Below are positions 12,401-58,977 of a stretch of DNA of 64,000 nucleotides, piece by piece. The notes beneath the pieces are model-generated. The model did no database searches and was not told the DNA's origin. It saw only the letters and a list, made by a program, of their open reading frames with translations. Origin of the DNA: a virus (taxonomy: Duplodnaviria > Caudoviricetes). Every line of letters starts with the position of its first letter. Position 1 is the first letter of the stretch. A program made the translations under genes and the position numbers. Location: positions 53,523-117,522 of IMG/VR virus record IMGVR_UViG_2918987250_000001; one strand, written 5' to 3'.

Positions 12401-13427
12401 AGAGGCCGAACTTGTCCACCTTCGAGGCGTCGATGAACTCGCCCAGACCGTAGCGGTTGTTCGTGAGCAGGTCGTAGAAGATCCACGCCGGGTTGTTGGT
12501 CCAGGCGCGCTTGAAGCCGCCCTGCCAGAAGCCGTCGTAGGTGCGGGTCTCCGGGTTGTAGTTGTCCGGGACCTGGATGATGAGGCCCTTGACGTGGAAG
12601 AACCGGCTCGGGATCGACGTGCCGAAGTTCTGCGCGTCCACGACGAGCTTCACGAGCGCCGTGTTCGGGTAGGTGAACTTGCCCTCGACGATCTGGGTGT
12701 AGCTCTCCCAGACCAGCGAGTTCTGGTGCCACTCGACGTTGGCGTCGGGGTTGATCTTGCGGACGCGGATCGACCACGGGAAGCCGTAATCCGGCAGCTC
12801 GATCACCGACGCCTTCTGGTAGGGCGAGGTGGTCTTCTGCTGCTGAAACAGCTCGCGCTTGACCGCTTCCCACTGGCCGCCGTTGGGCCGGCGCTCGATC
12901 ACGTAGTCGAGGTCGGTCGGCAGGAGCGAGCCGTTGTTCTGGTCCTGGATCACCAGGCTCGGGATCGAGGCGATGATGCGGACAGCCGTGGTGTTGCGGT
13001 CGGCGATGACGCGCACGGGCGGCTGCTGGGCCGACTTCACCTCGACGTTGACGGCGAAGGTGGTCTCCGCGGTCGCCGTGCCGGTGAGCATCTCCTGATC
13101 GGGCAGGCCGGTGCGCTGCTCCCAGTCCACGCCCTTGAAGTTGTAGCTGTCGTCCGAGGCGTTCTGGAGCGGCGTCTGGTCGAAGTAGATCGACTTGGCC
13201 CCGTTCACGAGGCCGACGATCTCGCCCTCGCCCAGGACCTCGATGATCTTGGCCTTGGCGTTGGAGCGCAGGGTGTTGTTGGCATCGGACTTCTGCGAGC
13301 CCTTGCCGCCCTTGCCGCCGCCACCCATGAGGCCGCCGGAGCCGACGATCTCGTTGAAATCGGTCGGGACGTTCGAAAAGTCAGTGCTGACTGACTCGTG
13401 AGGACGTGCGTCTTCCATCTCGCTCAT
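6420..13427 (-). CDS. Tail tip / host-specificity protein J (2335 aa) with FN3 domains and decapeptide repeat stalk
   Basis: Lambda J motifs GEGEIVGLVNG, AWTNNPAWIFYDLLTNNRYGLG, EPRYTYNG, GCTSRGMAHRIGRW. True start could be 13328. Confidence 0.93.
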   Translation of the reverse strand: MSEMEDARPHESVSTDFSNVPTDFNEIVGSGGLMGGGGKGGKGSQKSDANNTLRSNAKAKIIEVLGEGEIVGLVNGAKSIYFDQTPLQNASDDSYNFKGVDWEQRTGLPDQEMLTGTATAETTFAVNVEVKSAQQPPVRVIADRNTTAVRIIASIPSLVIQDQNNGSLLPTDLDYVIERRPNGGQWEAVKRELFQQQKTTSPYQKASVIELPDYGFPWSIRVRKINPDANVEWHQNSLVWESYTQIVEGKFTYPNTALVKLVVDAQNFGTSIPSRFFHVKGLIIQVPDNYNPETRTYDGFWQGGFKRAWTNNPAWIFYDLLTNNRYGLGEFIDASKVDKFGLYAIARWCDELVDDGKGGKEPRYTYNGVINSRDDAFKVLQQITTSFRGMAFWSVGQVFAVADMPADYTKILAPANVLGGAFKYSRTAKKTRNSVAMVSWNDPEDYYRPAIEVVQHDEALDRFGWRSTDIQAHGCTSRGMAHRIGRWTLDTEHTATETVEFEMGLDALAKDPIKPGDIIAVADPRKAQTRIGGRVADRDGRRITLDKAFVPLAGSSYRLSVVLASGELETRAIVGWAENNLVAILESDLSGPIVPGAMWAITGTDVAPRQYRVLLVTEPKKNTFKIAALFHDPQKYARVEEGIVLDPIRYTRPKTTIRPVTNIDVREHQTFRNGVPVTETTISWSPANDWLSSAYSVFLAGPDGEQDLGTTTAPSMTLIDLRSGDYTVYVTAVGAGNLRSEATEKAFTIKGWEGLAGPSITNLRVRGGEGGRFSSRDCVLDWDVAWPEGTIPYEIDYVVRVFDLESRELLSDHLSTSATFTYGFDRNVADGGPRRKFWVQVRARDAISRESLPASLVCENPAPEMIIPDVRPTTESVFVSYDRPADLDWMGGLVWLERDQGFDPLKTRPTYDGPNTLINLPVLKDTYYYVRFAAYDAFGKEGLNISPEQRVLVTNKVIDNVAPEIPTGLKLRTISEVSADFTSARVIAEWDANPSPNFASYEIEFKRKQDLSWARDPVLDAKWERSRLPAGEILQVRVRALNTSGYPSGWSEIEEIVLAKNEVPPDPVTKFEAEATFGAVSLSWVDPKQVDLAYVELWAADTVAGERRLIGRAGKGQQSFWDTTLQVSGERFYFARTVNTSDAESKVFVGPARAVAPQITKQEIAAGILDQTSFARGLTLIGTSKGLPPVAGYDGPTIIANEEDGKLYRLTNGKWELVIAEVSVDDIKGLITDEMIAAIDAAKVAGQLSDEQLEAISTNKLIGKVVADQIESLGVNQLIGQLKASQLEAIEATKLIGRLTAAQLEAIEATKLIGKLTAAQIESINAAQLAGQLTAAQLAGIEASKLIGQVVDGQIASVGVGKLAGKITRVQITDGAIASPQIQAGSVHADRLIAYSITAQQIAARAITADQIAVGTLTGNLIAANTITGTNIAARSITAANLVAGTITAGEIMAGAITGDRIAGRTISASNLIAGTITAGEIAARTITGENLAFRSIQAGNIAAGAITAYEVAAYSLTATNIAANQIAAWHIVAGTITSAQIQAGSVHADRLIANSITADQIGANAIRAIHVSASAIEARHIVAYSITAGQIAARTIAAENIAFGTLTGNEIRANSIQADRIVANSITSAQIMAGAIQAAQIAAGAITADKIGVGLGNGNLLFGSDFTNNLGGWVANWWSDGVAPTVSRNGDWAPTGMGSAMVHRPGTPGFGSVADYVLRRRTQTDWVNNYPCVPGRRYELSAYVSVHRCQATVAIQFLNAAGQEVGIAWGNTLETNGANGVLSNWPRSAVFGVAPATAVTMVPICRTTWNGGVDPYTFWTGLYLGNAHANQSAFSPWSPNSSTVIDGGIVATNSLHAEKVIAGTITADKIAAHTITANQIAFYTLTGDYIAANSIYADRIQIGGGNSLTTWLGGPNNTQMNGGYIAANSIAANSLKVGARGLTILGIEFTARKSDSLLSWTSGHIAWVDDNGNQQHTAIAAGSVGWNGWLGVTWFKGRGYLDWSNDGNGGWNRDYAHPDAVPMAFYSGYLGLNVLKGSTIIDGTRIQTGTITANEISAGAIQADKIAAGAIKAEHIGAHQVTADKIGAGTITVSSAIYIGSPRFSLDVPTRMMRVFAPSGTEMVSIGNIGRFWGEGDDGRHGLIIRAPDGNHVMQVDQHGASIAAAYIRDLRVTRAMIDDASINNAKIENGAITSAKIGYLEVDMANIKNGAVSQALAGSWGAGGAQVLGVGVRSHEAKLQIRGIAQNNPNTNWGSRSAGYLHIYFNPDNDGSRRWIIATVAQNFWMDRFLNYYWGTTPIEVVHQPGPGYHSYTIESSTGYAEGMNLSIIELTK
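8460..9720 (-). repeat. Coding tandem repeats (I-T-A-x-x-I-A-A-x-x and ASKLIGQLTAAQLE units) within J
   Basis: Visible in the translation; degenerate 30-nt and 48-nt periodicity. Confidence 0.85.
10483..10504. promoter_or_regulatory. Intragenic operator copy (perfect 22-bp palindrome) in J
   Basis: GTGAAGTCAGCGCTGACTTCAC. Confidence 0.75.
13377..13394. promoter_or_regulatory. 18-bp palindromic operator
   Basis: AAAGTCAGTGCTGACTGA. Confidence 0.7.
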
Positions 13428-40080: not shown

Positions 40081-40136
40081 CCATGGCCGTTATCCGCTAA
40101 AGCGCCATGTCTCCATGGCGCCAAGGCACCAAGAGG
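40081..40136. repeat. 8-bp-period array (CCWWGGCG-like) upstream of parA; candidate centromere/operator
   Basis: ccatggcc gttatccg ctaaagcg ccatgtct ccatggcg ccaaggca ccaagagg. Confidence 0.7.
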
Positions 40137-40145
40137 ATGACGGCC

Positions 40146-40799
40146 ATGCAGACCCTCGCCGTGCTCTCCCAGAAGGGAGGCGTAGGCAAATCCACGATCG
40201 CTCGCCTCATGGCGACCGCCTATGCCGGCGCCCAGTGGCGCGTGAAGATCGCCGACTTCAACGTGAAGCAGCTCACCAGCGTGGACTGGTCCGCGAGCCG
40301 CATGGCCGCCGAGATCCAGCCCGAGGTGCCGGCCGAGGCCTTCTCCAGCGTCAAGCAGGCGCTCCGGCAGAACCTCCACTACGACCTCATGGTCTTCGAC
40401 GGGAAGCCCGACTCCGACGTGACCAGCCTGGAGATCGCCCGCGAGAGCGACGTGATCCTCCTGCCGGCCGGCGTGAGCGGTGACGACCTGCGCCCGCAGG
40501 TGAAGTTCGCCCACGAGCTCGTGTCCCGCGGCGTGGACCGGGCGCGCATCCACTTCGTCATCAACAAGACCCTCGAGAGCGCAGCCTCGATCTCCGACGC
40601 CCGCGGCTTCATCGAAGCGGCCGGCTACCGGGTGCTCGCGACGGATCTACCCTCCAAGACGGGCTACCAGCTCGCGCAGAACATGGGCCGCGCCATCTCC
40701 GAGAGCGCCTTTGCCACCCTGAACGAGCGGGCCGATGCTCTGGCCCAAGAGGTCGTGGATCTCATGACCACGCACGCCGGCACGAAGAGGGTCGCCTGA
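40146..40799 (+). CDS. parA: ParA (type Ib, ParF-like) partition ATPase
   Basis: QKGGVGKST deviant Walker A; short protein with no N-terminal HTH. Confidence 0.93.
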   Translation: MQTLAVLSQKGGVGKSTIARLMATAYAGAQWRVKIADFNVKQLTSVDWSASRMAAEIQPEVPAEAFSSVKQALRQNLHYDLMVFDGKPDSDVTSLEIARESDVILLPAGVSGDDLRPQVKFAHELVSRGVDRARIHFVINKTLESAASISDARGFIEAAGYRVLATDLPSKTGYQLAQNMGRAISESAFATLNERADALAQEVVDLMTTHAGTKRVA

Positions 40800-41056
40800 T
40801 GGTCACGGCTCCCCCTCCCCCGCGCACGCTCGCCAATGCGGGTCGTCTCAAGCCCGAGAGCGCCCCGGCGCCGGCGGAAGCGCCCAAGAACCTGTCCACG
40901 TCCAACCAGGGCAAGTGGGTGCCGCTCACCTTCAAGGTCACGGAGGACGAGCGCTACGCCTACCGGCTCGAGGCTGCGAAACGGCGCATGAACCTCAAGG
41001 AGCTATTCGAGGCCGCGCTCAAGACCTACCGCGAGCAATACCCGCTCCAGGAGTGA
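40799..41056 (+). CDS. Ribbon-helix-helix centromere-binding protein (ParG-like)
   Basis: Coupled to parA; disordered N-tail plus VPLTFKV...EAAKRRMNLKELFEAAL. Confidence 0.8.
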   Translation: MVTAPPPPRTLANAGRLKPESAPAPAEAPKNLSTSNQGKWVPLTFKVTEDERYAYRLEAAKRRMNLKELFEAALKTYREQYPLQE

Positions 41057-41060
41057 CGCC

Positions 41061-41285
41061 ATGCACATGACCCACGCCGACCTGTGCGCGATCTACGCGA
41101 GGATGACGCCCGCGGAGCGGGCGGAAGCCCAAGCGGAGGCGCGCTCCAAGGGTGTTGAGGTTCACGAGCTCCTGGCCCGAGCGGTCGAGAGCCTCATCCA
41201 AGGGTATGATCGCCAGACCGTCGCGGTGCTGAAATCCTGGCATACGAGCGCCGAGCGACCGAGCGCCGTGGTGTCGAGCGTCTGA
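41061..41285 (+). CDS. Hypothetical protein
   Basis: AGGAG RBS; follows the RHH gene. Confidence 0.55.
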   Translation: MHMTHADLCAIYARMTPAERAEAQAEARSKGVEVHELLARAVESLIQGYDRQTVAVLKSWHTSAERPSAVVSSV

Positions 41286-41455
41286 GCGACCGAGAGCCGA
41301 GCGACTGAGCGCCAAGGGTCCGATCACCGGGAGTTCCGGGGCCTATCCCAAGGGTCCGGGAATATGTGCTGCCGAGACCCGAGGCATAGCCCTCGAGCAG
41401 ACGCGATTTATCTAAGACTTCGTAACTTTACGCTAACTTTTCCGCAAAACACTAT

Positions 41456-41483
41456 GCGAGCGCGCTAATGTTAACGCGCTCGC
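41456..41483 (-). terminator. Hairpin after the first GG-free gene
   Basis: GCGAGCGCG-loop-CGCGCTCGC, built without GG/CC. Confidence 0.55.
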
Positions 41484-41491
41484 TTCTAATG

Positions 41492-42187
41492 TTATGCGAA
41501 GTCTTCAAACATTAGATCATTGCACACTGCGAGAAACTGCTTTAACAGTGCGAACTCTTCGAAGCGATAATAGACGATATGTGCATTTGCGGTGCGTTGC
41601 GCTTCGCTTACATCATGCGTCTTATTCGCTAGATGCTTGACGATAGCGACGTGATAATCTTGCGCATCTTTGGTGCAAGCGAGCACTTCGACATAAACGT
41701 CTTGCATGATAAGCGCAGTGTAGCGCTCTGACATAGCGTCAACGTTATCGAGTTGCGTCGCGTCAGTGCGCATGTCAGAGAAAGCGTTAAACGCTTCTTC
41801 GTTAAAGCTGCAATCTATGCGATATTGCGCTTCGACGTTGCTAAGCGCGCGCTCTAGCGTGTGATGCACCGACGAAAGCAACACATTGATGCTTGACGCT
41901 TCGCTGTCGTTTTCGACGTAGCACGTCTCACAGATAAACGCGATGTGTTCAGCGTCGCTGAAAGTCACCGCAAAATAGTTGCTGTCGTTTTCGTTAGAGA
42001 ACGTCGCGACAGAGCACAAGTCGTTATAGTCTTGAAGCGACAGCATCACAGGTGTTTTTGTGTCGTTGAGCTTGTTATGAATGAAGCGCGCGAAGTCTAG
42101 CGCGACAACATCACGTTGCGCTTTCAGCGGTGCATCAGCGATCTCGAAAGAGACAGCATTCATCTCATGAATATCAGCGAGCGTCAT
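41492..42187 (-). CDS. Acidic early protein lacking Gly and Trp
   Basis: 231 aa with its own promoter and leader. Confidence 0.8.
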   Translation of the reverse strand: MTLADIHEMNAVSFEIADAPLKAQRDVVALDFARFIHNKLNDTKTPVMLSLQDYNDLCSVATFSNENDSNYFAVTFSDAEHIAFICETCYVENDSEASSINVLLSSVHHTLERALSNVEAQYRIDCSFNEEAFNAFSDMRTDATQLDNVDAMSERYTALIMQDVYVEVLACTKDAQDYHVAIVKHLANKTHDVSEAQRTANAHIVYYRFEEFALLKQFLAVCNDLMFEDFA

Positions 42188-42208
42188 AGCGTGTGCTTTC
42201 TGTGGTGC

Positions 42209-42267
42209 GTTGTTGACTAGAGAGTTTTACTGTCGTGCTTGTGCGGTGTCAAGTCAGCGCTGACTTA
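42209..42267 (-). promoter_or_regulatory. Early promoter with abutting operator
   Basis: Operator 42250-67, then TTGACA-17-TAAAAC-6-GTCAACAAC. Confidence 0.75.
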
Positions 42268-42681
42268 TTTCTGCGCTTCAAGCACTTTCTTCGCGCGATC
42301 AATGCGCATCACATGCGTGTGACGCTCGCGCTTGAAGCGCTCGACGTTTGCAAGATGCGCTTTATGCGTCACGTCTAGTTCAGCGGAAATCTCAGCTAGA
42401 CGCTTTTGCGATGCGTCAAGCATCGCTTGCGCGCGCTCGACTGTAAGCGCATTCTTGCGCTTGATATTGTTCGCTTCGTTTTGTTCGCGTGTCTGGTAGC
42501 GCGCGAGCTGTATTTCAGCTTTGCGCAGCATATCGACAAGCTCTTTTTGCGGTAGCGTCATCAGCTCAGCGGTGCGAGCGTTCAGCGTCAACGCGCTTGT
42601 CGCGCTCGCATTCGCTTTGCGACATTGCTCGATCATCGCTTGTTTGCGATGCGCTTTCGATGCGTTGCAGCGCTCAGTCAT
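42265..42681 (-). CDS. Coiled-coil early protein lacking Gly and Trp
   Basis: 138 aa; 33-nt leader/start duplicated with the downstream gene. Confidence 0.75.
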   Translation of the reverse strand: MTERCNASKAHRKQAMIEQCRKANASATSALTLNARTAELMTLPQKELVDMLRKAEIQLARYQTREQNEANNIKRKNALTVERAQAMLDASQKRLAEISAELDVTHKAHLANVERFKRERHTHVMRIDRAKKVLEAQK

Positions 42682-42800
42682 AGCGTTCGCTTTCTGTGGT
42701 GCGTTATTGCGCTCAGAGCGTCACACAGCGCGATGCGTGCGCGTGTCGCTTCGTCGGTGCGCAGAGACGCGCGAAGCGTCTCTGCGGTCGAATGTGAGCG

Positions 42801-43421
42801 CTAGAGCGCGACGCTCAGAGCTTTCGCGAGACGCTTCGTCGTCGGTGCGTCTTTGTTGAGCGTGTAAGCAACTTCGTTCTTGTCGTCGCGCGTCTCTTTG
42901 AGCACGTCGAACATTTGCAGAGCGTTGATGCTAGAGCTTGATTGCGTGTCTGCGGTGCTCGCTGCGATCGAACGCGCATAGCGCACGATATGCGCAGACT
43001 TGTGCGCGTCGCACCGCAAATCAGAGCAGAGCGACGCTTGCGCGTCAGCGTGCGTCATCGACAGCTTTTCTTTGGTCAGCTTCAGCGCAGTGAGAAACAC
43101 ACAGCGCGTGTAATTGTTGAGCGTGTCAGCTTGCGCAGCGCTTCGCGCAATGTTTGCGACTTTCTGCGCAGCGTAGACGTTGAAGCGCTTGTTCTTACGC
43201 TCATGTCTGTTGATGAAGTCAGCGTTGACGTTTGCGGTGTGCATCACGCTAACGACAGCTTCGTGCGAGAAATCTTTCGCGAGATTGCTGAGCGTCTTTT
43301 GAATGTTGTCGTTGTCGGTGTTCTGCGCTTTCTCGTAAGCAGCGCGTGCGCTGATCGAAGTCTGAAGCGCGACGCTGTAGTTATTGAGCGCGTCGATCTG
43401 CTGCGCGTTGAGCTTCGTCAT
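42801..43421 (-). CDS. Early protein lacking Gly and Trp; paralog of 45667-46593
   Basis: Shares NIQKTL, ANV..FINR, R(F/Y)NVYA..KVA and TA.TQ.SS...AL with the paralog. Confidence 0.85.
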   Translation of the reverse strand: MTKLNAQQIDALNNYSVALQTSISARAAYEKAQNTDNDNIQKTLSNLAKDFSHEAVVSVMHTANVNADFINRHERKNKRFNVYAAQKVANIARSAAQADTLNNYTRCVFLTALKLTKEKLSMTHADAQASLCSDLRCDAHKSAHIVRYARSIAASTADTQSSSSINALQMFDVLKETRDDKNEVAYTLNKDAPTTKRLAKALSVAL

Positions 43422-44075
43422 AACTGTGTCTCTCTCTCGTTTGTGGTGTGTTTGTCGTGTCGTTGTTGACGAGAGTTAGAATAGCGATCTGCGAGAGAGG
43501 CACAAGCGTCAAATGATAGAAAAACCGAAAAAAGTCAGTTCGCGCTGATTTTTTCCGAAAAACGCATTTTCTCGCGTTTTCGGTCAAAAAGTCAGTTGAC
43601 GCTGATCTGCGTGCGTGTATACTCAAGACATCAGAGAGAGACAGAGAGCTAGACAGATGAAACGAAGTTGACCGCAGAGCACCGCAGAAGAAAATCAGAA
43701 AAAGCGACGCGCTCGACTAGACAACAAGCGAGCAAGCGTGTAGCTTGACCATAGAGCAGACGACTCGACAGCGACGCACGACCCCAGACTGGGGCCGGGT
43801 GCGGGCGCGGCTGGCTCGGCGCCGCCCGCCCATGGGGCAGCCATGGGAAGCCGTGGCTCAGGCCGTTCCGAATTTTCCCGACAGCCGTTCCTAATTTCCG
43901 CGCCCCAGATTTTCGCACCGGTCCCATGGCATCCCGAGGCGCTCCACGGCGACCGGACCCATGGCGCCCCACGCGACACCCATGGGAGAGCCGGAGATGG
44001 TCCATGGCGCCCCATGCAGCTCCACGGGTCTCCCATGGCGTCCCATACTCTCCCATGGGGGAATGCACGCACGCG

Positions 44076-44101
44076 AAAAGCGCGCTGGGGCTCAGCGCGC
44101 T
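44076..44101 (-). terminator. Rho-independent terminator
   Basis: AGCGCGCTGAGCCCCAGCGCGCTTTT on the minus strand. Confidence 0.7.
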
Positions 44102-44112
44102 CATCTGGGGCT

Positions 44113-44409
44113 CTACTCGGCGAGCAGGGCTTGCTGGCGCATCAGCTTCGCGTGACGCTGCTGCGAGCGGTTCATGCGGCGATCGAGGCGCGACTTGGCG
44201 TAGAGCATCTTCTGGCGATGCGCGCGCAGCGCTGCGGGGCAGGTCTCGTCGGTGGTGATGAGCGAGAGCTCGTGCTTGGCGCGACGCATGGCGACTTGCA
44301 GCTCGTTCGAGTGGGCTCGCTGGGCGCGCACGGTCTCGTCGTTGACGACTTCGAGGTAATCGGCGCACTGGGCGAAGCGAAGGGCGATCTGCTTGATGAA
44401 CTTCGTCAT
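44113..44409 (-). CDS. Basic early protein lacking Gly and Trp
   Basis: 98 aa with own promoter and terminator; no GG on the coding strand. Confidence 0.75.
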   Translation of the reverse strand: MTKFIKQIALRFAQCADYLEVVNDETVRAQRAHSNELQVAMRRAKHELSLITTDETCPAALRAHRQKMLYAKSRLDRRMNRSQQRHAKLMRQQALLAE

Positions 44410-44449
44410 GGTCGGCACTTGCTCTCTTGTCTAGCAGCGGTGTCGCTGC

Positions 44450-44492
44450 GTTGTTGACAAGTATGTTTTAGCAAGTGCGCAGAGTTTTGTGC
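44450..44492 (-). promoter_or_regulatory. Early promoter, GCACAA class
   Basis: GCACAA-16-TAAAAC-6-GTCAACAAC. Confidence 0.75.
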
Positions 44493-44695
44493 GCGGAGCG
44501 TTATGGCAATACTTGCACGGCACTGGGGCTGTATGGGCGTCCGGGAGCGGATGTGCGGCTGTGGGGTTGCTCGAGGCCGAGAGGCAGTGGACCGCGTCGA
44601 GGCCTAGCGGATCGAGGTCCTCCCATGGCCGGTAGGCCTACAGGCCTGGCCTAGAGGCCTGCATCCATGGCCTGCCATGGGGAGGCTTGGTCACG

Positions 44696-44724
44696 AGAAG
44701 AGAGCGCACGGGGCGCTCTCTCTT
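44696..44724 (-). terminator. Hairpin terminator
   Basis: AGAGAGCGC-loop-GCGCTCTCT directly after the stop at 44730. Confidence 0.6.
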
Positions 44725-44729
44725 GGGGC

Positions 44730-45344
44730 TTAGGCAGCAGCGGTGCGGTAGTCTTGCGGAATCGTCTCGTGGACGACGAGCGCGTTCGCGTCGCTCTCGG
44801 TCACGAGGATCTGCGACAGACCCCAGGTCGTGCTCTCGAGGGAGATGTAGGTGACGGGCTCGTTCACAGCGGGGTCGAAGTCGCTGTTGACGCGCACGGC
44901 GGTCGTCGGGTCTGCGAGGAACGCATTGGCGATGCGATCGACTTCACCGGAGAGCTGGGCGCGCAAGCTGGGCGCATACTGGGGATCGTTCTTGTAGATG
45001 GGGTCGCTCTCGGCGTGCATCTTCTCTTCGCAGTCGAAGACGATCGTCATGGACTCGCGGAGCTGCGCGACAGCTTCTTCGACGGTCTCGAACGCGAGGA
45101 TCGTCGTGTTGTCAGGACCGCAGTCGAGATAGGCGAACAGCGTCTTGGACGCGCTCGCAGCGATCAGCGCATGGGTGCGCTCGTTGGTCTCGTAGATGCA
45201 CTCGTCGTCGCTCAGGTCTTCGTGGGGCGACGTGTTGCAGGTCACGCTCGGGCACGCATTCTCGCGCTCTGTGAGCGTCACGCTGATGTCGAGGTAGGTG
45301 AAGGTCTCGGCGTTGGTGATGGTGGTGTTCTTGGTGATCGTCAT
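44730..45344 (-). CDS. Acidic early protein (only 3 Gly, all GGT)
   Basis: 204 aa with own promoter and terminator. Confidence 0.8.
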   Translation of the reverse strand: MTITKNTTITNAETFTYLDISVTLTERENACPSVTCNTSPHEDLSDDECIYETNERTHALIAASASKTLFAYLDCGPDNTTILAFETVEEAVAQLRESMTIVFDCEEKMHAESDPIYKNDPQYAPSLRAQLSGEVDRIANAFLADPTTAVRVNSDFDPAVNEPVTYISLESTTWGLSQILVTESDANALVVHETIPQDYRTAAA

Positions 45345-45366
45345 GTCGCTCTCTCTGGTGCAGCTC

Positions 45367-45409
45367 GTTGCTGACAATCTCGTTATAGCGATGCTCTCTT
45401 GCTTTGTGC
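45367..45409 (-). promoter_or_regulatory. Early promoter, GCACAA class
   Basis: GCACAA-16-TATAAC-6-GTCAGCAAC. Confidence 0.75.
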
Positions 45410-45630
45410 GCGGCGAGGTATGGGCGCTCTAGGATCGCTCAGGAGCGCTGGGACCGGTCTGGGAGCGGGGAACGCCGCCCCATGGGGCTCCTCGGGGCTC
45501 CACGGCCGCCCACGGCGATCCATGGACGCCTCCCATGGGGAGCCACGGGCGGCCCACGGGCTCCCATGGGTCTCGTGCGCTGGGGCGCCCCAGCCGTTCC
45601 TATTTTTCCCATGGGCGGATTCGATCACGA

Positions 45631-45656
45631 GAAAGGGGAGCCCCGTGAGGCTCCCC
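45631..45656 (-). terminator. Rho-independent terminator
   Basis: GGGGAGCCTCACGGGGCTCCCCTTTC on the minus strand. Confidence 0.75.
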
Positions 45657-45666
45657 AGACTGTCGA

Positions 45667-46593
45667 TCAGGCGGCGCGGGCGAAGAGCACTTCCTCGAGA
45701 CGCTGCACGATGGGGCTGTCCGTCAGCGTGAAGGTGGGGTTGCGGCTCGATCCCTCGCGCTTGACGATCCCGAGGGTCTCGAGGGCCTGCATGGTGGAGG
45801 ATGCCTGGGTCGGCGCGGTGCCGGCGCTCACGGTGTGCCGGACCAGGTGCTTGCGGATCGCGAGGTCGATGTGGTGCTTGTCGGAGGCGCACGCCTTGGC
45901 GACCTCACCGGTGAAGGGCAGCCCTGCCTTTCGCATCTGGAAGAGCGAGACCATGCAGGCCCGGTTGATCGCGTTGGAGACGACCCCGTCCGCCAGCGCC
46001 TTCACAGCGTCCGCGACCTTGTCGATGGCGTAGACGTTGTAGCGGCTGCCGTCGTGGAGCGTGCGGTTGATGAAGGACGGATCCACGTTCGCAGCGAGCA
46101 TCACGCGGCTCGTGTCCTTCCACATGAGCTGCTTGCGGACCTTGTTGAGGGTCTTCTGGATGTTGTGGCCCGCGCCCTTCTTCGCCAGCTCGAAGCTCTC
46201 ACGGGCGTTGATCGAGGCGGTGATGGAGAGCGTCATGCTCTGGACCGCAGCGTCATCGAAGGCACGCATCGCCTCGGCGAAGGTCTTGGGCTCTTCAGCG
46301 GTGTCGGGCTCGTCGCTCACGGCCGGCTCCTCGTGGACCTCCTCGGCCTGCTCTTGGAGGAGATCGGCCTCGGCCGAGAGGACCTGCGCCTCGGTGTCGT
46401 CGAGATCGCTCATGGAGAGCGAGGCGAGGGCGGCGTCCAGCTCGTCGGTGACGGCGAAGGTCTGGGCGAGAGAGGCGGCGCGGTCCTCGTAGCGCATGTG
46501 GTCGGTGAAGTCGGAGACGTGCTGGGCGAACGAACCCTCGAGCACGACAGCGGCGACCGGGGCGAGCTTCTTGGAAACAGACTTGCGAGCCAT
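45667..46593 (-). CDS. Early protein with acidic N-extension and C-terminal domain paralogous to 42801-43421 (possible wHTH)
   Basis: MARKSVSKK start; normal genome codon usage. Confidence 0.85.
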   Translation of the reverse strand: MARKSVSKKLAPVAAVVLEGSFAQHVSDFTDHMRYEDRAASLAQTFAVTDELDAALASLSMSDLDDTEAQVLSAEADLLQEQAEEVHEEPAVSDEPDTAEEPKTFAEAMRAFDDAAVQSMTLSITASINARESFELAKKGAGHNIQKTLNKVRKQLMWKDTSRVMLAANVDPSFINRTLHDGSRYNVYAIDKVADAVKALADGVVSNAINRACMVSLFQMRKAGLPFTGEVAKACASDKHHIDLAIRKHLVRHTVSAGTAPTQASSTMQALETLGIVKREGSSRNPTFTLTDSPIVQRLEEVLFARAA

Positions 46594-46797
46594 TTGTTTG
46601 TCGATCCTTATCTGATGAAGCACTGCGCTTCGTTTCGACAAGTATCGTTATGACGACTCCAATACCCGGTTGCACTTGGCACGTTATGGGGATTTGCGAT
46701 TACTTATGGGAGCCGGAGCCCTCGGCAGCCCATGGCGTTCCATGGGGAGGCGCGGATCGTGAGGGGCCGGGAATAGTCGTGCCCTAGCTCCAAAACG

Positions 46798-46856
46798 CCA
46801 TCGGCCTGTTCTTAGATATATACCTTTAGAGAAGTAGATACATAACAGGCCGATGG
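46798..46856. repeat. AT-rich core (35 nt) flanked by 12-bp inverted repeat, copy 3
   Basis: CCATCGGCCTGT-[AT-rich]-ACAGGCCGATGG-ACTTGG. Confidence 0.9.
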
Positions 46857-47619
46857 ACTTGGGAATCCAACCCCGGCTCGGGAATCCATGGGTCTCGGTG
46901 AGGGAGAGATGGGTCCGGCTCTGAGTGAGCGGCACCGGTCCATGGAGACCCGAGGGCTCCCATGGCTTGCGAGGCTCCGGCACCCGCGGCCGTTCCTAAA
47001 TTCGGGAAGGCTTGACCGGGACCGGACCGGGTCTCTGACATTCGAGGGGCGCCAATCCCTCGCACTCACCGGTCCGGTCGCAGCGTCAACAACGCCAGAG
47101 CACCACAGAGAGACAGGGTGCAGGAGCGCATCGGCGAACGCGCTCAACTGACGCTGTGATCTATGACGACCCCGCGCGAATTTTTCAAATGGCGTCGCAA
47201 GGCGTGAAAACGGGCTCGTGCGTGGAGATTGGGTGCGGCCGGCCTCTCGCGTGTTTCCCAGGCTCTCGATCTCTCTAGGCACTCTCTGCGCATTCTCTGT
47301 GAGGCACCTCTCTATGGGCTCACACAGGCACACGGGCTCTCTCTAGGGGCTGCCTCTCTCACACACCTGTCCCCGTATGCGCTCTATGCGTCGGAGCTGC
47401 TCTCTAGGGGTCGTGTGTGCTCTTCTCTCTCTGTGACGCGCTCTCTGGTGCGTGCTCTCGCTCTCTATGCGGGCGTGCTCTCTGGTGCGCGACGTTGCTC
47501 TGTGAGCGCTCTCTCTAGCGTCGTGCGTGTCGTTGCTCGTTCTCGTGCGTGCTGATGCTCAGCGGTCGATTTTGGTGAGGGTGGTCGGTTTGTCCAGAAA
47601 TGCGCAAAACGGGTTTCTG

Positions 47620-47737
47620 ACCGGACAAATGGGGGACATCCAGGGGACATCTGGGGGACGTTTTGGGGACAAGTGCCCGATGTTCGTATTGGACGCTCGG
47701 GGGACGTTTGAGGGACAGCTTGTCCCCTGGTTGTCCG
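47620..47737. repeat. GGGGAC-type repeats at 11-bp period (iteron-like)
   Basis: GGAC at 47623/34/45/56/67 and 47691/702/713; inverted GTCC at 47722/33. Confidence 0.75.
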
Positions 47738-47786
47738 GTGGCCTGCAGGTGGTGGACGGCCTCTCTTGGCCGGGACCTGCCTCGAC

Positions 47787-47999
47787 CTAGCTGGACTGTT
47801 GGCGTGCGAGCTCCACGGCTCTGGCGAGGATGCGCTCCTCGTTCTCTAGGCCGGCGATGATCTTGGGGATGGCGTAGGGGCTGCGTGCTCTCTGGCGCGG
47901 CTTCTCCAGAGAGAGAGTCGTGAGGGCGAGCCGCAGCGAGTGGTCGATCATGCCCGGTGAGCCCGTGGACATCATCTCTCGGAGGCGCTGAGGCGTCAT
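47787..47999 (-). CDS. Hypothetical protein
   Basis: ORF following 48003-48353. Confidence 0.45.
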   Translation of the reverse strand: MTPQRLREMMSTGSPGMIDHSLRLALTTLSLEKPRQRARSPYAIPKIIAGLENEERILARAVELARQQSS

Positions 48000-48002
48000 G
48001 GC

Positions 48003-48353
48003 TCACTCGGCCGGTAGGGCGATCCCCCAGTAGCAGACGGCGTAGCCGCTGGGGCGGAAGCATTCCATGGCTGTCACAGATCCCTGTGAACTGTCGCTTA
48101 CCGTGAGCCGCTCGCCGGCGTCCTCATAGCGACAGGATGAGCCGCGGCCGGGGATGTTCTCGCGTTCCCGCTCTCGGATGAAGGCGGTGAAGGCCACGGC
48201 GTCGCCATGGGCTGCCAGGCGTGCGAACTGATCCGCATCCGAGAGGCGCTGGCAGAGGAAGTGGGGCTGCGTGAGCAGGACGGTCTTGGCTTGGGCCTGG
48301 GCTGCGCAGGGAGCGGCCAGGAGCGCCAGGGCGAGGAGGAGACGGGTCTTCAT
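48003..48353 (-). CDS. Secreted/periplasmic protein
   Basis: Sec signal peptide MKTRLLLALALLAAPCAAQA; four further Cys in the mature part. Confidence 0.65.
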   Translation of the reverse strand: MKTRLLLALALLAAPCAAQAQAKTVLLTQPHFLCQRLSDADQFARLAAHGDAVAFTAFIRERERENIPGRGSSCRYEDAGERLTVSDSSQGSVTAMECFRPSGYAVCYWGIALPAE

Positions 48354-48386
48354 GCCCGTCTCATAGCTCGGGCGTGGTGGGACGTT

Positions 48387-48758
48387 CTAGGGGCTGTGAC
48401 GCTTCCACTCGAAGTAGGGCATCCCCTTGTCGTCCTTGTTGTGCTCGCCGAGGAAGACGGTGCCGATCGGCTCATCCACGATGATGTTGGCGAGCTGGCG
48501 CTGGACGGACAGCGGCATCGTCATGGATGGGTTGCCGAAGGCGATGTCTCCCCGCTCGGCCGGACGCCATTGGAGCTCGTAGCGTCGCTCGGGGCCGCGG
48601 CGCGGGTAGTGGACGATCACCAGGTCGATCTTGTCCTCGGCGACCTTCTCCGCGCGCAGCTCCACGTCCGGTGCTCTGGGGATGAACTCGACGCGGGGCG
48701 GGCGCTCGGCATCGCGCTGAGCCTCCATCGCCGCGCGGATGCGATCTATGACGCTCAC
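48387..48758 (-). CDS. Hypothetical protein
   Basis: Coupled ORF in early operon. Confidence 0.6.
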   Translation of the reverse strand: MSVIDRIRAAMEAQRDAERPPRVEFIPRAPDVELRAEKVAEDKIDLVIVHYPRRGPERRYELQWRPAERGDIAFGNPSMTMPLSVQRQLANIIVDEPIGTVFLGEHNKDDKGMPYFEWKRHSP

Positions 48759-49006
48759 CGGCCGCGACCCTTCGCCATGAAGATCTGGAGCTCGCCCCGC
48801 TTGAAGCCCTCACCGAAGACCGGGTCGATGCCGAGGCTGAACGGCCTGACGATCTCGGGCTTGCGCACGTCGGGCTGGATGGAGGTGAGCGTCACCGGCC
48901 CGTGCTCCTTCGCGATCTCCCGCAGCTCGTCGTAGATGGCGCGGATCTTCGGATCCTCGTCGCGGGAGAGGCCGATGTAGCGACCGGTGGCTTGGTTCTC
49001 GCTCAT
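48755..49006 (-). CDS. Hypothetical protein
   Basis: ATGA overlap; ends in GELQIFMAKGRGR, resembling a DnaB-type fragment. Confidence 0.55.
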   Translation of the reverse strand: MSENQATGRYIGLSRDEDPKIRAIYDELREIAKEHGPVTLTSIQPDVRKPEIVRPFSLGIDPVFGEGFKRGELQIFMAKGRGR

Positions 49007-57509: not shown

Positions 57510-58775
57510 TCAGCCCTTCACGTTGATGAGGGTGCGGAGACGCTCGTGGACCGTGATGAGCGATCCCTCCTGCGCCGCGATGACCGAGTTCACGTCCTTG
57601 TAGGCCGCGGGGCTCTCGTCGAGGACCTCGGCGTCACGGCGGCACTCGATCCCCTCGACGGCCGCGGCGTGCGACTCGAGCGTGATGGTCTTGAACGCCT
57701 GGGTCCGGCTCATGGCCCGGCCGGCGCCGTGCGAGCAGCTCATGAAGCTGTCGCGGTTCCCCAGGCCCTTCACGATGAACGACCCGGTCCCCATCGAGCC
57801 GGGGATGATGCCGAACTCGTCGCGGCGCGCGCTCGTGGCGCCCTTGCGGGTGATCCAGAGATGCTTGCCGTCGTGCCGCTCCCGCTGCGTGAAGTTGTGG
57901 TGGCAGTCGATACGGAAGAGCACGTCGCCCTTCTCCATCTCTCCTTCGGGGCGCGGGTCGAAGCCGAGCGCCCGGATCGTGGCGTTCATCATCAGGTTGC
58001 GGTTGGCGCGGGCGAAATCCTGCGCCCAGTGCATCCCGTCGATGTAGCGCCGGAACTCGACCGTCCCCTCGACCAGGTAGGCGAGGTCGGGATCGGGGAG
58101 CTTGATGAACCACTTCTTCATCAGCTCCTTCGCCACCTTCATCCAGTGGCCGGCGATCTTGGCGCCGGGGCCGCGCGAGCCCGAGTGCAGCATCAGCCAC
58201 ACATACCCGTCCGAGCCCTCCTGGACCTCGATGAAGTGGTTGCCGGAGCCGAGCGTGCCGAGGTGCCGCACCGTGTTGTTGATGCGGAGCTCGTTCGTCT
58301 CGACGCAGAGCTGACCCCAGCGCACGCCGAGGCTGTCGAGGGAGCCGTTCGGATGCCAGACCTGGGCGACGGCGTCCGGGATGTCGTGCCAGGCGCCGCG
58401 GTCGTTCGGGCCACCGTTGTCGGTGCGGCCATGCGGCACCGCCTTCTCGATGCTCTGGCGCATGTAGGCACGCAGCTTCGGATCGGAGATCTCCGAGGCC
58501 AGGAGATTGAGCTTCACGGCCTGCATCCCGCAGCCGATGTCCACGCCGATCGCCGCCGGCACGATGGCGCCGTCGGTGGCGATCACCGAGCCGATCGTGG
58601 CGCCCTTGCCGTAATGCACGTCGGGCATCGCGGCGACGTGGCCGTGAATGAACGGGAGCTGGCCCACGTTCTTGAGCTGCTGGAGCGCGCTCTCCTCGAC
58701 GTGAACGCCCCGCGTCCAGGTCTTGAGCGGCCGGCCGCCCGGATTGTCGTGGTAGACGAATGATGCCTCGGACAA
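57510..58775 (-). CDS. rtcB: RtcB RNA ligase
   Basis: MPDVHYGKG, GVDIGCGM, GTLGSGNHFIE, HSGSRG, HHN, PGSMG, SHGAGR, ESPAAYKD; TTG start after AGGAGG. Confidence 0.96.
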   Translation of the reverse strand: MSEASFVYHDNPGGRPLKTWTRGVHVEESALQQLKNVGQLPFIHGHVAAMPDVHYGKGATIGSVIATDGAIVPAAIGVDIGCGMQAVKLNLLASEISDPKLRAYMRQSIEKAVPHGRTDNGGPNDRGAWHDIPDAVAQVWHPNGSLDSLGVRWGQLCVETNELRINNTVRHLGTLGSGNHFIEVQEGSDGYVWLMLHSGSRGPGAKIAGHWMKVAKELMKKWFIKLPDPDLAYLVEGTVEFRRYIDGMHWAQDFARANRNLMMNATIRALGFDPRPEGEMEKGDVLFRIDCHHNFTQRERHDGKHLWITRKGATSARRDEFGIIPGSMGTGSFIVKGLGNRDSFMSCSHGAGRAMSRTQAFKTITLESHAAAVEGIECRRDAEVLDESPAAYKDVNSVIAAQEGSLITVHERLRTLINVKG

Positions 58776-58776
58776 G

Positions 58777-58977
58777 TCAGTCCTCCTGTGTGACGAAGTT
58801 GATGGGAAAGGGGCAGTCCACGCCCTCCTTGAGGGCCTTCTGGACCGCGTCATCGAGGTTCTTGGCCGGCCCCTGCCACCGCGCGCCCTTGCGCGGCAGC
58901 TTGAACCGCACGTCCTTCTTCGCGCCCGTCAGATCGACGAGCCGGACGTGCATCGCGAGGCGCTCAGCCTTCGCCAT
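58777..58977 (-). CDS. Hypothetical protein
   Basis: ORF directly upstream of rtcB; start uncertain. Confidence 0.5.
   Translation of the reverse strand: MAKAERLAMHVRLVDLTGAKKDVRFKLPRKGARWQGPAKNLDDAVQKALKEGVDCPFPINFVTQED

Follow-up and report, generated by a model that had tools for sequence, protein, structure and literature searches.

The window, a 64,000-nucleotide stretch of DNA, belongs to a 117.5-kb phage-plasmid genome of the RHEph10/V1VFA-S type, and the region described here contains the early genes g3, gA, gB and gC, all encoded on the minus strand. gA (44113-44409) codes for a basic, helical protein of 98 aa with neither glycine nor tryptophan, gB (44730-45344) for an acidic protein of 204 aa, and gC (45667-46593) for a protein of 308 aa whose N-terminus is variable and acidic and whose C-terminal domain is conserved, with a predicted winged-helix fold. 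A Gly- and Trp-free paralogue of this conserved domain is encoded by g3 (42801-43421), which sits inside a GG/CC-free island. Minus-strand terminator hairpins are at 44080-44100 for gA and 44698-44724 for gB (both read from the sequence), and at 45635-45656 for gC. The gA promoter (44465-44493, minus strand; -10 TAAAAC at 44465-44470, -35 CGCACA at 44488-44493) is of a design that recurs before gB (45382-45410, minus strand; -10 TATAAC at 45382-45387, -35 CGCACA at 45405-45410), and the -10 and start region are also present before g1. The gC promoter has a -10 of CATAAC (46647-46652, minus strand). The gaps between these promoter-terminator units are untranscribed spacers, and they carry rows of a symmetric CCATGG-like word, one per helical turn. 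The order within each gap is terminator, a conserved box, a track of repeated units and then a promoter. There are five separate arrays spread over four to five spacers, each with a terminator on one side and the next early promoter on the other, and the tracks are mostly 50-250 bp upstream. We note that the tracks adjoin a 1.2-kb gene-free, repeat-rich stretch and a block of presumably first-expressed genes, and that a different tandem repeat is present at 41245-41323, directly after the par operon.

The array unit is cCCATGGg, with the next CC at +10 or +11 and spacers of 4-5 bp, and its general form is CC-WW-GG, with CCRYGG and CCSSGG as variants; units with GC-rich centres (CCGCGG, CCGAGG, CCTCGG) are common track members. 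No strand asymmetry is evident in 126 sites, and a symmetric unit of this kind suits a dimer. Next to the edge of the GG/CC-free island, S0b (43830-43856) has three units, CCATGG, CCATGG and CCGTGG, starting at 43830/41/51 with steps of 11 and 10. The longest track, S0a (43924-44058), lies directly after the gA terminator and has 13 units with a mean step of 129/12 = 10.75 bp; nine are strict CCNNGG (starting at 43924/34/44/59/80 and 44002/22/33/53) and four are degenerate (43969 CCCACG, 43991 CCGGAG, 44012 CCCATG and 44043 CCCATA). S2 (45480-45569) is a nine-unit track starting at 45480/90/500/10/20/33/43/54/64, with steps of 10, 10, 10, 10, 13, 10, 11 and 10 and a mean of 84/8 = 10.5 bp. S3a (46720-46745) has three units at 46720/30/40, with steps of 10 and 10, just 5′ of the gC promoter, into which degenerate CCCATAA units extend, and S3b (46886-46965) has a lone CCATGG at 46886 and three units at 46940/50/60. 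The hexamer positions listed in the original prediction are thus all correct, with four of them being the degenerate units of S0a.

These arrays depart strongly from chance. Twenty-one of the 36 copies of CCATGG in the 117.5-kb genome fall within 964 bp of non-coding spacer, and the enrichment in the 3.1-kb region has a binomial P of 3e-24. When the periodic power of CCNNGG in each spacer was compared with 300 dinucleotide-preserving shuffles, the observed value was reached by none of the shuffles for S0 (43800-44070) or S2 (45440-45640) and by seven for S3 (46690-47010), and the phasing at about one helical turn proposed earlier is thereby supported. S1 is of a different type. The segment 44600-44680 does contain, as had been noted, seven GGCC (four of them AGGCCT; 0.88 expected, Poisson P 4e-5) and three CCATGG, but this is a cluster and not a phased array, since 81 of 300 shuffles reach the observed CCNNGG power in the S1 spacer (44530-44700) and the periodicity is not significant.

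The spacers were described originally as the compositional opposite of the genes, and this is correct. S2 includes the 150 bp that are densest in GG plus CC anywhere in the genome (34.7 per 100 bp, against 16.8 +/- 4.0), so that the tracks form the genome maximum and their direct neighbours are its least dense DNA. The description of the transcription units as GG-free applies to gA, with no GG on the sense strand, and nearly to gB, with five, but not to gC, with 55. The purge is strand-specific in both gA and gB, which have 28 and 59 sense-strand CC respectively, and it reaches about 50 to 80 bp 5′ of their promoters; because it extends upstream of the promoters, it acts on the DNA and not on the RNA. 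Avoidance of restriction sites does not account for the spacers, as was argued at the outset. The genome is completely purged of GTAC and a dozen palindromic hexamers, including CCCGGG, GGGCCC, CCTAGG and TCCGGA, whereas CCATGG is retained and concentrated in the spacers.

The arrays are joined to a conserved box, AAATTAGGAAYGGC, with four copies in the genome, all of them in array spacers. Two copies, AAATTCGGAACGGC and AAATTAGGAACGGC in the minus-strand reading, lie 22 bp apart at 43862-43896. A third, AAAAATAGGAACGGC (45593-45614, minus-strand reading), is flanked by a CCATGG at 45609 and has the first track unit 23 nt after it, and the fourth, AATTTAGGAACGGC (46989-47001, minus-strand reading), has its first unit 23 nt downstream. 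The distance from box to first unit is 22-24 nt in this window and in four related loci (L006, L007, L008 and L016), with steps of ~10 following. Centre-to-centre distances between box and track units peak at 30, 41, 52, 63 and 74, although a test of this phase is marginal, with 127 of 2000 re-phasings matching it. Between the arrays there is also a 13-bp inverted repeat (46798-46856) around a 33-bp AT-rich element (46811-46843), and the element is in the same place in relatives.

About 40 of 50 related loci, Rhizobium phage RHEph10 among them, have the array layout. In a comparison of 20 loci the density of CCATGG next to the gC gene was 11 times that found elsewhere (185 versus 87 sites, P 1e-82), and the 20 gC genes together contain a single site; an independent set of 30 metagenome loci agrees with this, and its most frequent step is 10. 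In one clade CCATGG is replaced in the corresponding spacers by CCTAGG at a strict 11-bp step, such that CC, GG and the spacing are kept and the centre of the unit is changed. Doublets of the form CCTAGG-N5-CCTAGG are present, and they match the one-turn spacing of half-sites that is usual for MarR/ArsR-type dimers. The spacers of relatives cannot be aligned, yet motif and step are preserved; the array sequence turns over fast, and selection therefore acts on the array rather than on its exact sequence.

Of the early genes, only gC and g3 are conserved throughout the family. The C-terminal winged helix of gC is predicted with a pLDDT of 81, and its fold matches AF1382, RosR, MarR- and ArsR-family proteins and Orc WH domains (VIA Z 9.2-7), although these scores are middling and the winged helix is a very common fold. 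The gC sequence has no match among PDB chains or Pfam families, and no Rep-like initiator with two winged helices is among the fold matches listed. The putative recognition helix (TQASSTM) is identical in loci with CCATGG tracks, in loci with CCTAGG tracks (L039-L042 and L052) and in loci lacking tracks (L021 and L022). The helix thus does not co-vary with the track motif; the box may be all that gC reads, or gC may recognise neither box nor track.

The explanation we favor, with about an even chance of being right, is that the arrays are docking tracks on which a protein assembles cooperatively to control or insulate the early units. Of the roles suggested originally (protein binding, bending, or dense modification) protein binding fits best, given the symmetric unit, the conserved motif and step, the box and the winged-helix gene. 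A dimeric protein would recognise the CC/GG pairs with little regard for the two central bases, and would occupy adjacent units cooperatively on one side of the helix, with the box as the probable starting point. The coated block could then control the nearby early promoter, insulate neighbouring units from each other's transcription, or both, and its effect might be repression, activation or insulation. The leading candidate for the binder is gC, with its short GG-free paralogue g3, and the winged-helix class of protein proposed earlier thereby gains circumstantial support; nothing ties the ParB-like or TerS proteins to the arrays. We note that the S2 track is 90-190 bp upstream of the -10, which is too far for a classical operator and counts against this model.

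The closest parallel is StbA of the IncW plasmid R388, a helix-turn-helix protein with one conserved DNA-binding and one non-conserved domain, which acts both as a regulator of multiple operons and as a centromere protein, and binds cooperatively, as dimers on repeat pairs, to the 11-bp-phased stbDR repeats present in 2 to 10 copies at five promoters of the leading/maintenance region (bioRxiv 10.1101/2022.04.29.490116). The arrays described here are similar in having short repeats phased at one helical turn (steps of 10-11 bp) upstream of several early promoters in a region that establishes a plasmid. There are also clear differences. stbDR is made up of 9-bp direct repeats, TTGCATCAT, separated by 2 bp and located within promoters, whereas these arrays contain no such direct repeat and consist of 6-bp palindromes mostly further upstream. 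StbA is a PadR-like HTH protein to which gC has no detectable sequence relation, and the gC fold scores Z 7-9 against MarR/ArsR/RosR-type chains. The extra conserved box and the purging of GG/CC from neighbouring genes are further departures from stbDR.

A different interpretation, which we regard as unlikely, is that whatever factor is evaded by the GG/CC-free early units acts massively on the tracks and makes them modification-dense or polar roadblocks. One possibility for this factor is a bulky mark on the C of CC carried by virion DNA, another is a protein reading the GG/CC step, and RNA polymerase or other translocases would then be halted at the tracks between units with no need for a dedicated sequence-specific regulator. 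Template-strand lesions and polar roadblocks both behave strand-specifically, as the purge in gA and gB does, and this purge, its extension 5′ of the promoters, the juxtaposition of GG+CC maximum and minimum, the terminator preceding every track and the fixed CC and GG around a changeable centre are all consistent with such an interpretation. However, a Pfam search for N6/N4 and C5 DNA methyltransferases found none, purging CCCGGG, GGGCCC, CCTAGG and TCCGGA would be needless were every CC protected by a mark, and a pile of modified sites requires neither one-turn phasing nor strict palindromy. Intrinsic DNA structure, which seems quite improbable as the explanation, would have a flexible CATG or CTAG core every 10-11 bp in stiff GC-rich DNA, forming an anisotropically bendable segment that could wrap RNA polymerase, HU/IHF or gyrase, boost strong early promoters, or isolate supercoiling domains. 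The mean step equals the helical repeat, the only A/T pairs of the array recur once per turn, the central dinucleotide can be either AT or TA, and the tandem units have strong promoters with the tracks 5′ of them. It is nonetheless the CC and GG that are invariant and not the flexible centre, the GC-only centres are common, and the asymmetric box at a fixed spacing suggests specific recognition.

The remaining interpretations are weak. The arrays are very unlikely to be a partition centromere for the neighbouring ParA (230 aa, PHROG 164, E 2e-26) and the 85-aa p85 that follows it ~3 kb from the arrays. p85 has a strand-helix-helix pattern by eye and no Pfam hit, ParA-type (Ib) and actin-type (II) partition systems do use short phased repeats, and in this genome two CCATGG sites flank the parA start. 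But upstream of parA in 17 relatives there are conserved GTTAAC/TTAGCGAAATCG-type words instead of CCWWGG; even the closest relative with data has no CCATGG there, and the small protein next to ParA does not fit as the array binder. The tracks accompany gC and not parA, five separate arrays would be unusual for a centromere, and the par operon is directly followed by the different tandem repeat mentioned above. A signal for stopping injection, for packaging or for a terminal-repeat boundary, comparable to the one that ends the first-step-transfer DNA of T5, has a very slim chance of being correct. T5 is a roughly 120-kb siphophage with terminal repeats, and its injection-stop region is non-coding, repeat-rich and beside first-expressed genes, as the tracks appear to be, with their gene-free neighbour. 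The relative B1VFA has fixed ends and a 3.6-kb direct terminal repeat (PMC12509600). The T5 signal is, however, one region at a defined distance from the end, whereas five arrays each between a terminator and a promoter, and not at one boundary, fit poorly, and the start of the B1VFA record lies elsewhere. It is extremely unlikely that gC is a replication initiator and the units its iterons, at an origin or a copy-control locus, in the manner of the P1 incC-repA-incA layout. gC does have arrays on either side, the conserved AT-rich element is between arrays 5′ of it, and there is a weak fold similarity to Orc1/Cdc6 winged-helix domains; against this, B1VFA has a RepC-type replication protein annotated at another place, gC is not similar to two-winged-helix Rep initiators, the units are 6-bp palindromes rather than 17-22-bp direct repeats, and the arrays span four to five spacers.

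Cooperative docking tracks of the kind we favor have several other counterparts, in that plasmids are known to regulate and position themselves by means of helix-phased tracks to which one small protein binds. In the ParR-parC systems of R1, pB171 and pSK41 and in TubR-tubC, repeats of 10-12 bp are bound side by side to give a continuous protein structure along one DNA face, and TubR is a winged-helix protein. Each of those systems has its repeats at one place, immediately 5′ of the partition operon to which they belong, and the repeats recruit ParM or TubZ, whereas the arrays here are distributed among spacers and absent from the parA promoter. Omega repressor of pSM19035 and KorB of RK2 each couple global regulation with partition through repeated sites upstream of several promoters, but Omega heptads are contiguous 7-bp units overlapping promoters and KorB sites are single 13-bp palindromes. 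The stoperators of mycobacteriophage L5 are many short intergenic sites at which one phage protein blocks transcription running across them; they are single, asymmetric 13-bp sites in one orientation in transcribed DNA, and no sites of that type are found here, where the units are symmetric, arrayed and behind terminators. No helix-phased repeat-track system in this group of alphaproteobacterial phage-plasmids, which is large and widespread, was found in the literature searched.

There is also a small chance that the tracks and the GG/CC-free genes make up the two complementary parts of a single code, in which one factor reads only the GG/CC step. This factor could be gC/g3, coating the DNA or forming a polar roadblock, or else a mark directed at CC in virion DNA. 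The step would be deleted where the factor must not act (in promoters and the template strands of first-expressed units), at the cost of glycine and tryptophan, and where it must act the step would be packed in both orientations, once per turn, as two-way insulators. On incoming DNA the source of the reader would be the GG-free copy g3, with the normal copy gC taking this role later or in the plasmid state. The tracks offer a practical handle for identifying the GG/CC reader in these elements, and knowing that reader could also account for the lack of glycine and tryptophan in early proteins. Three features are unusual: the conserved box, proposed to nucleate binding, precedes the first unit by 22-24 nt, the tracks directly abut genes from which GG/CC has been removed, and the centre of the 6-bp palindrome can be swapped from AT to TA, apparently to suit host restriction, with CC/GG and step kept.

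Rows of CCATGG-like (CCNNGG) units, about one per helical turn, are present in three spacers (S0, 43800–44070; S2, 45440–45640; S3, 46690–47010), and a fourth (S1, 44530–44700, between gB and gA) holds a cluster without significant period. These arrays lie within a row of six early promoter-gene-terminator units, all on the minus strand: g1 (41492–42187), g2 (42265–42681), g3 (42801–43421), gA (44113–44409), gB (44730–45344) and gC (45667–46593). Each unit carries a TAtAAC-type -10 element with TTGTCAACAAC after it; the -35 elements are CGCACA for gA and gB and TTGACA for g1. Every hexamer coordinate in the original prediction is correct, and 21 of the 36 genomic CCATGG copies fall in 964 bp of spacer (binomial P 3e-24 for enrichment in the 3.1-kb region). 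The S0 track (43924–44058) contains 13 units spaced 10.75 bp apart on average, and the S2 track (45480–45569) nine units with steps of 10, 10, 10, 10, 13, 10, 11 and 10 bp (mean 10.5 bp). The expected periodicity of about 10 bp is also borne out, as no dinucleotide-preserving shuffle out of 300 reaches the CCNNGG power of S0 or S2, and the S3 value is higher than that of 293. A cluster of GGCC sites at 44600–44680, described as part of the same pattern, is enriched (7 vs 0.88 expected, P 4e-5) but without significant period. Exact 6-mer and 8-mer screens for periodicity or conservation proved too strict to be informative. Across 126 array members in 20 loci the unit is symmetric, with flanks c-CCATGG-g and no strand bias, and the neighbouring units contribute a following CC at +10/+11 and a preceding GG at -6/-5.

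The spacers were proposed to be compositional opposites of the genes, and S2 does contain the genome maximum for GG plus CC (34.7 per 100 bp, vs 16.8 +/- 4.0 genome-wide), with these maximum spacers directly adjoining the genome GG/CC minimum. The g1–g3 island (41440–43790, 2.35 kb) is almost free of both dinucleotides, and its three proteins contain no Gly, no Trp and only one or two Pro. Of 23 related loci, 17 have a comparable GG/CC-poor segment at a distance of 1–5 kb (mostly 2–3 kb) from gC; in V1VFA-S this segment is inverted. The description of the transcription units as GG-free applies to gA, which has no sense-strand GG, and nearly to gB, which has five, but not to gC, whose GG composition is normal. 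The sense strands of gA and gB contain 28 and 59 CC, respectively. Plus-strand CC (that is, sense-strand GG) is absent from 44053–44541, the entire gA unit, and from 45118–45454, the 5′ third of gB; both stretches extend through the promoter to some 50 to 80 bp upstream of its -35, and sense-strand CC frequency within them is normal. The constraint is thus strand-specific and, since it also reaches upstream of the promoters, acts on DNA. Avoidance of UV or oxidation damage was rejected as its cause, since other dipyrimidines are plentiful on the template strand.

The spacers share a layout along the direction of transcription, with the terminator hairpin of the upstream unit followed by a conserved asymmetric box (AAATTAGGAACGGC), the track and then the promoter, and 40–100 bp with further degenerate CCCATA units between the last two. 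The box has four copies genome-wide, all in these spacers and all in gene orientation. There are two exceptions to the layout: S1 lacks a box, and the 13-unit S0 track is ahead of both boxes. The distance from the box to the first strict unit is 23 nt in two window spacers, and 22–24 nt, followed by steps of about 10, in the related loci L006 (three spacers), L007, L008 (three spacers) and L016. Box-to-unit centre distances peak at 30, 41, 52, 63 and 74 bp, corresponding to whole helical turns; a phase test pooling all 37 box-like words is marginal, with 127 of 2000 re-phasings matching. The phase of the units relative to the -10 gives a weak result, with few recognisable promoters. The possibility that the box is an ECF-type -35 (GGAAC) read by the phage's sigma-like protein was set aside, as it has no conserved -10 at 16–18 nt. 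A plus-strand sigma-70-like promoter at 43596–43623 (TTGACG-N16-TATACT) heads away from g3 and into the S0 track; the first ~155 nt downstream of it lack GG, contain just a 4-codon ORF, and end at a hairpin (CCCCAGACTGGGG, at 43782). The transcript of this element (43596–43797) is a candidate small RNA or leader. There is also a perfect 13-bp inverted repeat around a 33-bp AT-rich element (TCTAAAGGTATATATCTAAGA, minus strand) at 46798–46856, with similar AT-rich elements upstream of gC in V1VFA-S, L021 and L022; it is possibly an unwinding element, a promoter or a protein site.

The window is the final 64 kb of a single virus record of 117,522 bp with nearly all genes on the minus strand. Its helicase shares 52% identity with the helicase of the Rhizobium phages RHEph10, RHph_N1_15 and V1VFA-S/B1VFA, and the homologues of the local proteins have Methylobacterium and other Hyphomicrobiales as their source. 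These phages are siphophages carrying the plasmid-like genes parA, parB and repC, and B1VFA has a 3.6-kb direct terminal repeat (PMC12509600); the start of the B1VFA record does not fall in the track region. At the nucleotide level the region matches no phage record, and Rfam returned a single sub-threshold chance match, and nothing else, over both strands of 40500–49000. We also note an RtcB RNA ligase gene at 57510–58853 (E 4e-117), and a 213-aa protein (genome 33652–34293) with a marginal match to sigma-70 region 2; the corresponding B1VFA protein carries a sigma-factor annotation.

Conservation was assessed in 20 related loci (from phage records, one genome per species, and IMG/VR) and 30 metagenome loci. 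CCATGG pair distances in the related loci peak at 10 (26 pairs), 20 (14) and 30–31 (16), with only 1–2 pairs at neighbouring distances, and the peak at 10 is seen once more in the independent metagenome set. The density of CCATGG is 11-fold higher near gC (800 bp upstream plus 1500 bp downstream) than in the rest of the same loci (185 vs 87 copies, P 1e-82), and just one copy is within the 20 gC genes themselves. Among the sequencing runs, the region is present only in assembled contigs from close relatives, which break at the arrays. In relatives with gC 55–72% identical the spacers are unalignable save for the promoter and the units, yet the motif and step are kept, and the arrays therefore turn over; the B1VFA and V1VFA-S spacers are too alike to reveal selection. 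In the B1VFA/V1VFA-S clade and in metagenome loci L039–L042 and L052, CCATGG is replaced in the same spacers by CCTAGG, in arrays with a strict 11-bp step and often as CCTAGG-N5-CCTAGG doublets; B1VFA has 11 CCTAGG in 75 kb, and eight of them are in these spacers. The distant loci L021 and L022 retain gC and the box and have no tracks. Locus L020 has a second gC-family copy (11486–12886) that is not GG-free, with seven CCATGG within 250 bp ahead of it.

GTAC is absent from the source genome (340 expected) and from 75 kb of B1VFA (loci L024, L025 and L027), and a dozen palindromic hexamers are wholly missing from the source genome, those at zero including CACGTG, CAGCTG, CCCGGG, GGGCCC, CCTAGG, GACGTC, GTCGAC, GTGCAC, TCCGGA and GCTAGC, among others. 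These losses represent extreme restriction-site avoidance. Because the source genome lacks CCTAGG and B1VFA is depleted of CCATGG, the central pair of the unit seems to follow what host restriction permits, with CC, GG and the spacing fixed.

Among 23 local proteins compared across the 20 loci only gC, its paralogue g3, ParA and, partly, the 85-aa protein beside ParA (p85) are conserved; gA, gB, g1, g2 and the genes upstream vary between loci. No sequence relatives of gC are found in Pfam, PHROG or PDB, and AlphaFold predicts a winged helix at its C-terminal end (pLDDT 81). Its closest structural matches include the winged-helix DNA binders AF1382, RosR and MarR- and ArsR-family proteins, with others to the winged-helix domains of Orc/Cdc6 and the kleisin MukF; the VIA scores are middling (Z 9.2 to 7) and the fold is very common. 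The match of g3 is to the conserved domain of gC only (32% identity, E 2e-26). The gC helix does not co-vary with the array motif, since its presumed recognition helix, TQASSTM, is invariant across CCATGG-track, CCTAGG-track and trackless loci. The gC protein may read only CC/GG, or only the box, or neither. As track binder gC/g3 is the leading candidate, though less likely than not.

The most economical reading, to which we give an even chance, is that the tracks are docking tracks for a cooperatively binding dimeric protein, which would occupy the units in the fashion of StbA on stbDR. In plasmid R388, StbA is an HTH protein that binds 11-bp-phased stbDR repeats as dimers on repeat pairs, with sites at five promoters of the R388 leading/maintenance region and also in a centromere complex (bioRxiv 10.1101/2022.04.29.490116). 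That the tracks sit between a terminator and the promoter of the next unit suggests that they control the promoter and/or insulate tandem, strongly transcribed units, and the S0 track additionally faces the rightward promoter at 43596–43623. Action at the RNA level, as an SD-AUG decoy or protein sponge, was rejected on the basis of this position. The main rival is that the tracks could gather the factor that reads GG/CC and so act as roadblocks, which would tie them to the GG/CC purge; the strand-specific purge of gA and gB, which reaches upstream of their promoters and so acts on DNA, is in its favour, and the loss of GTAC and of the palindromic hexamers, CCCGGG and GGGCCC included, speaks against a mark that protects every CC. 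Pfam DNA methyltransferase profiles PF01555 and PF00145 gave no match.

For a centromere, a tandem repeat in the par region (40107–41323) is likelier than the CCATGG tracks. There a 230-aa ParA is followed, via overlapping stop and start codons, by p85, which has a strand-helix-helix pattern (ParG-like), and by a 74-aa protein whose NikA-like match is weak; beyond this is a 15-bp repeat (CGAGCGCCGAGCGAC) in 4.5 copies (41245–41323). Upstream of parA the relatives have conserved words other than the track motif, and in B1VFA the RepC protein is annotated away from the track region. A second phased array, built on a different word, is present at 47632–47717, with GGGGAC at 47632, 47643, 47654 and 47665 (exact 11-bp steps), a further copy at 47700 and then GAGGGAC. 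It is in a 1.2-kb gene-free stretch together with a CTCTCT(N)G repeat field (47240–47530), and at the corresponding place V1VFA-S has GACCTTTACA repeats.
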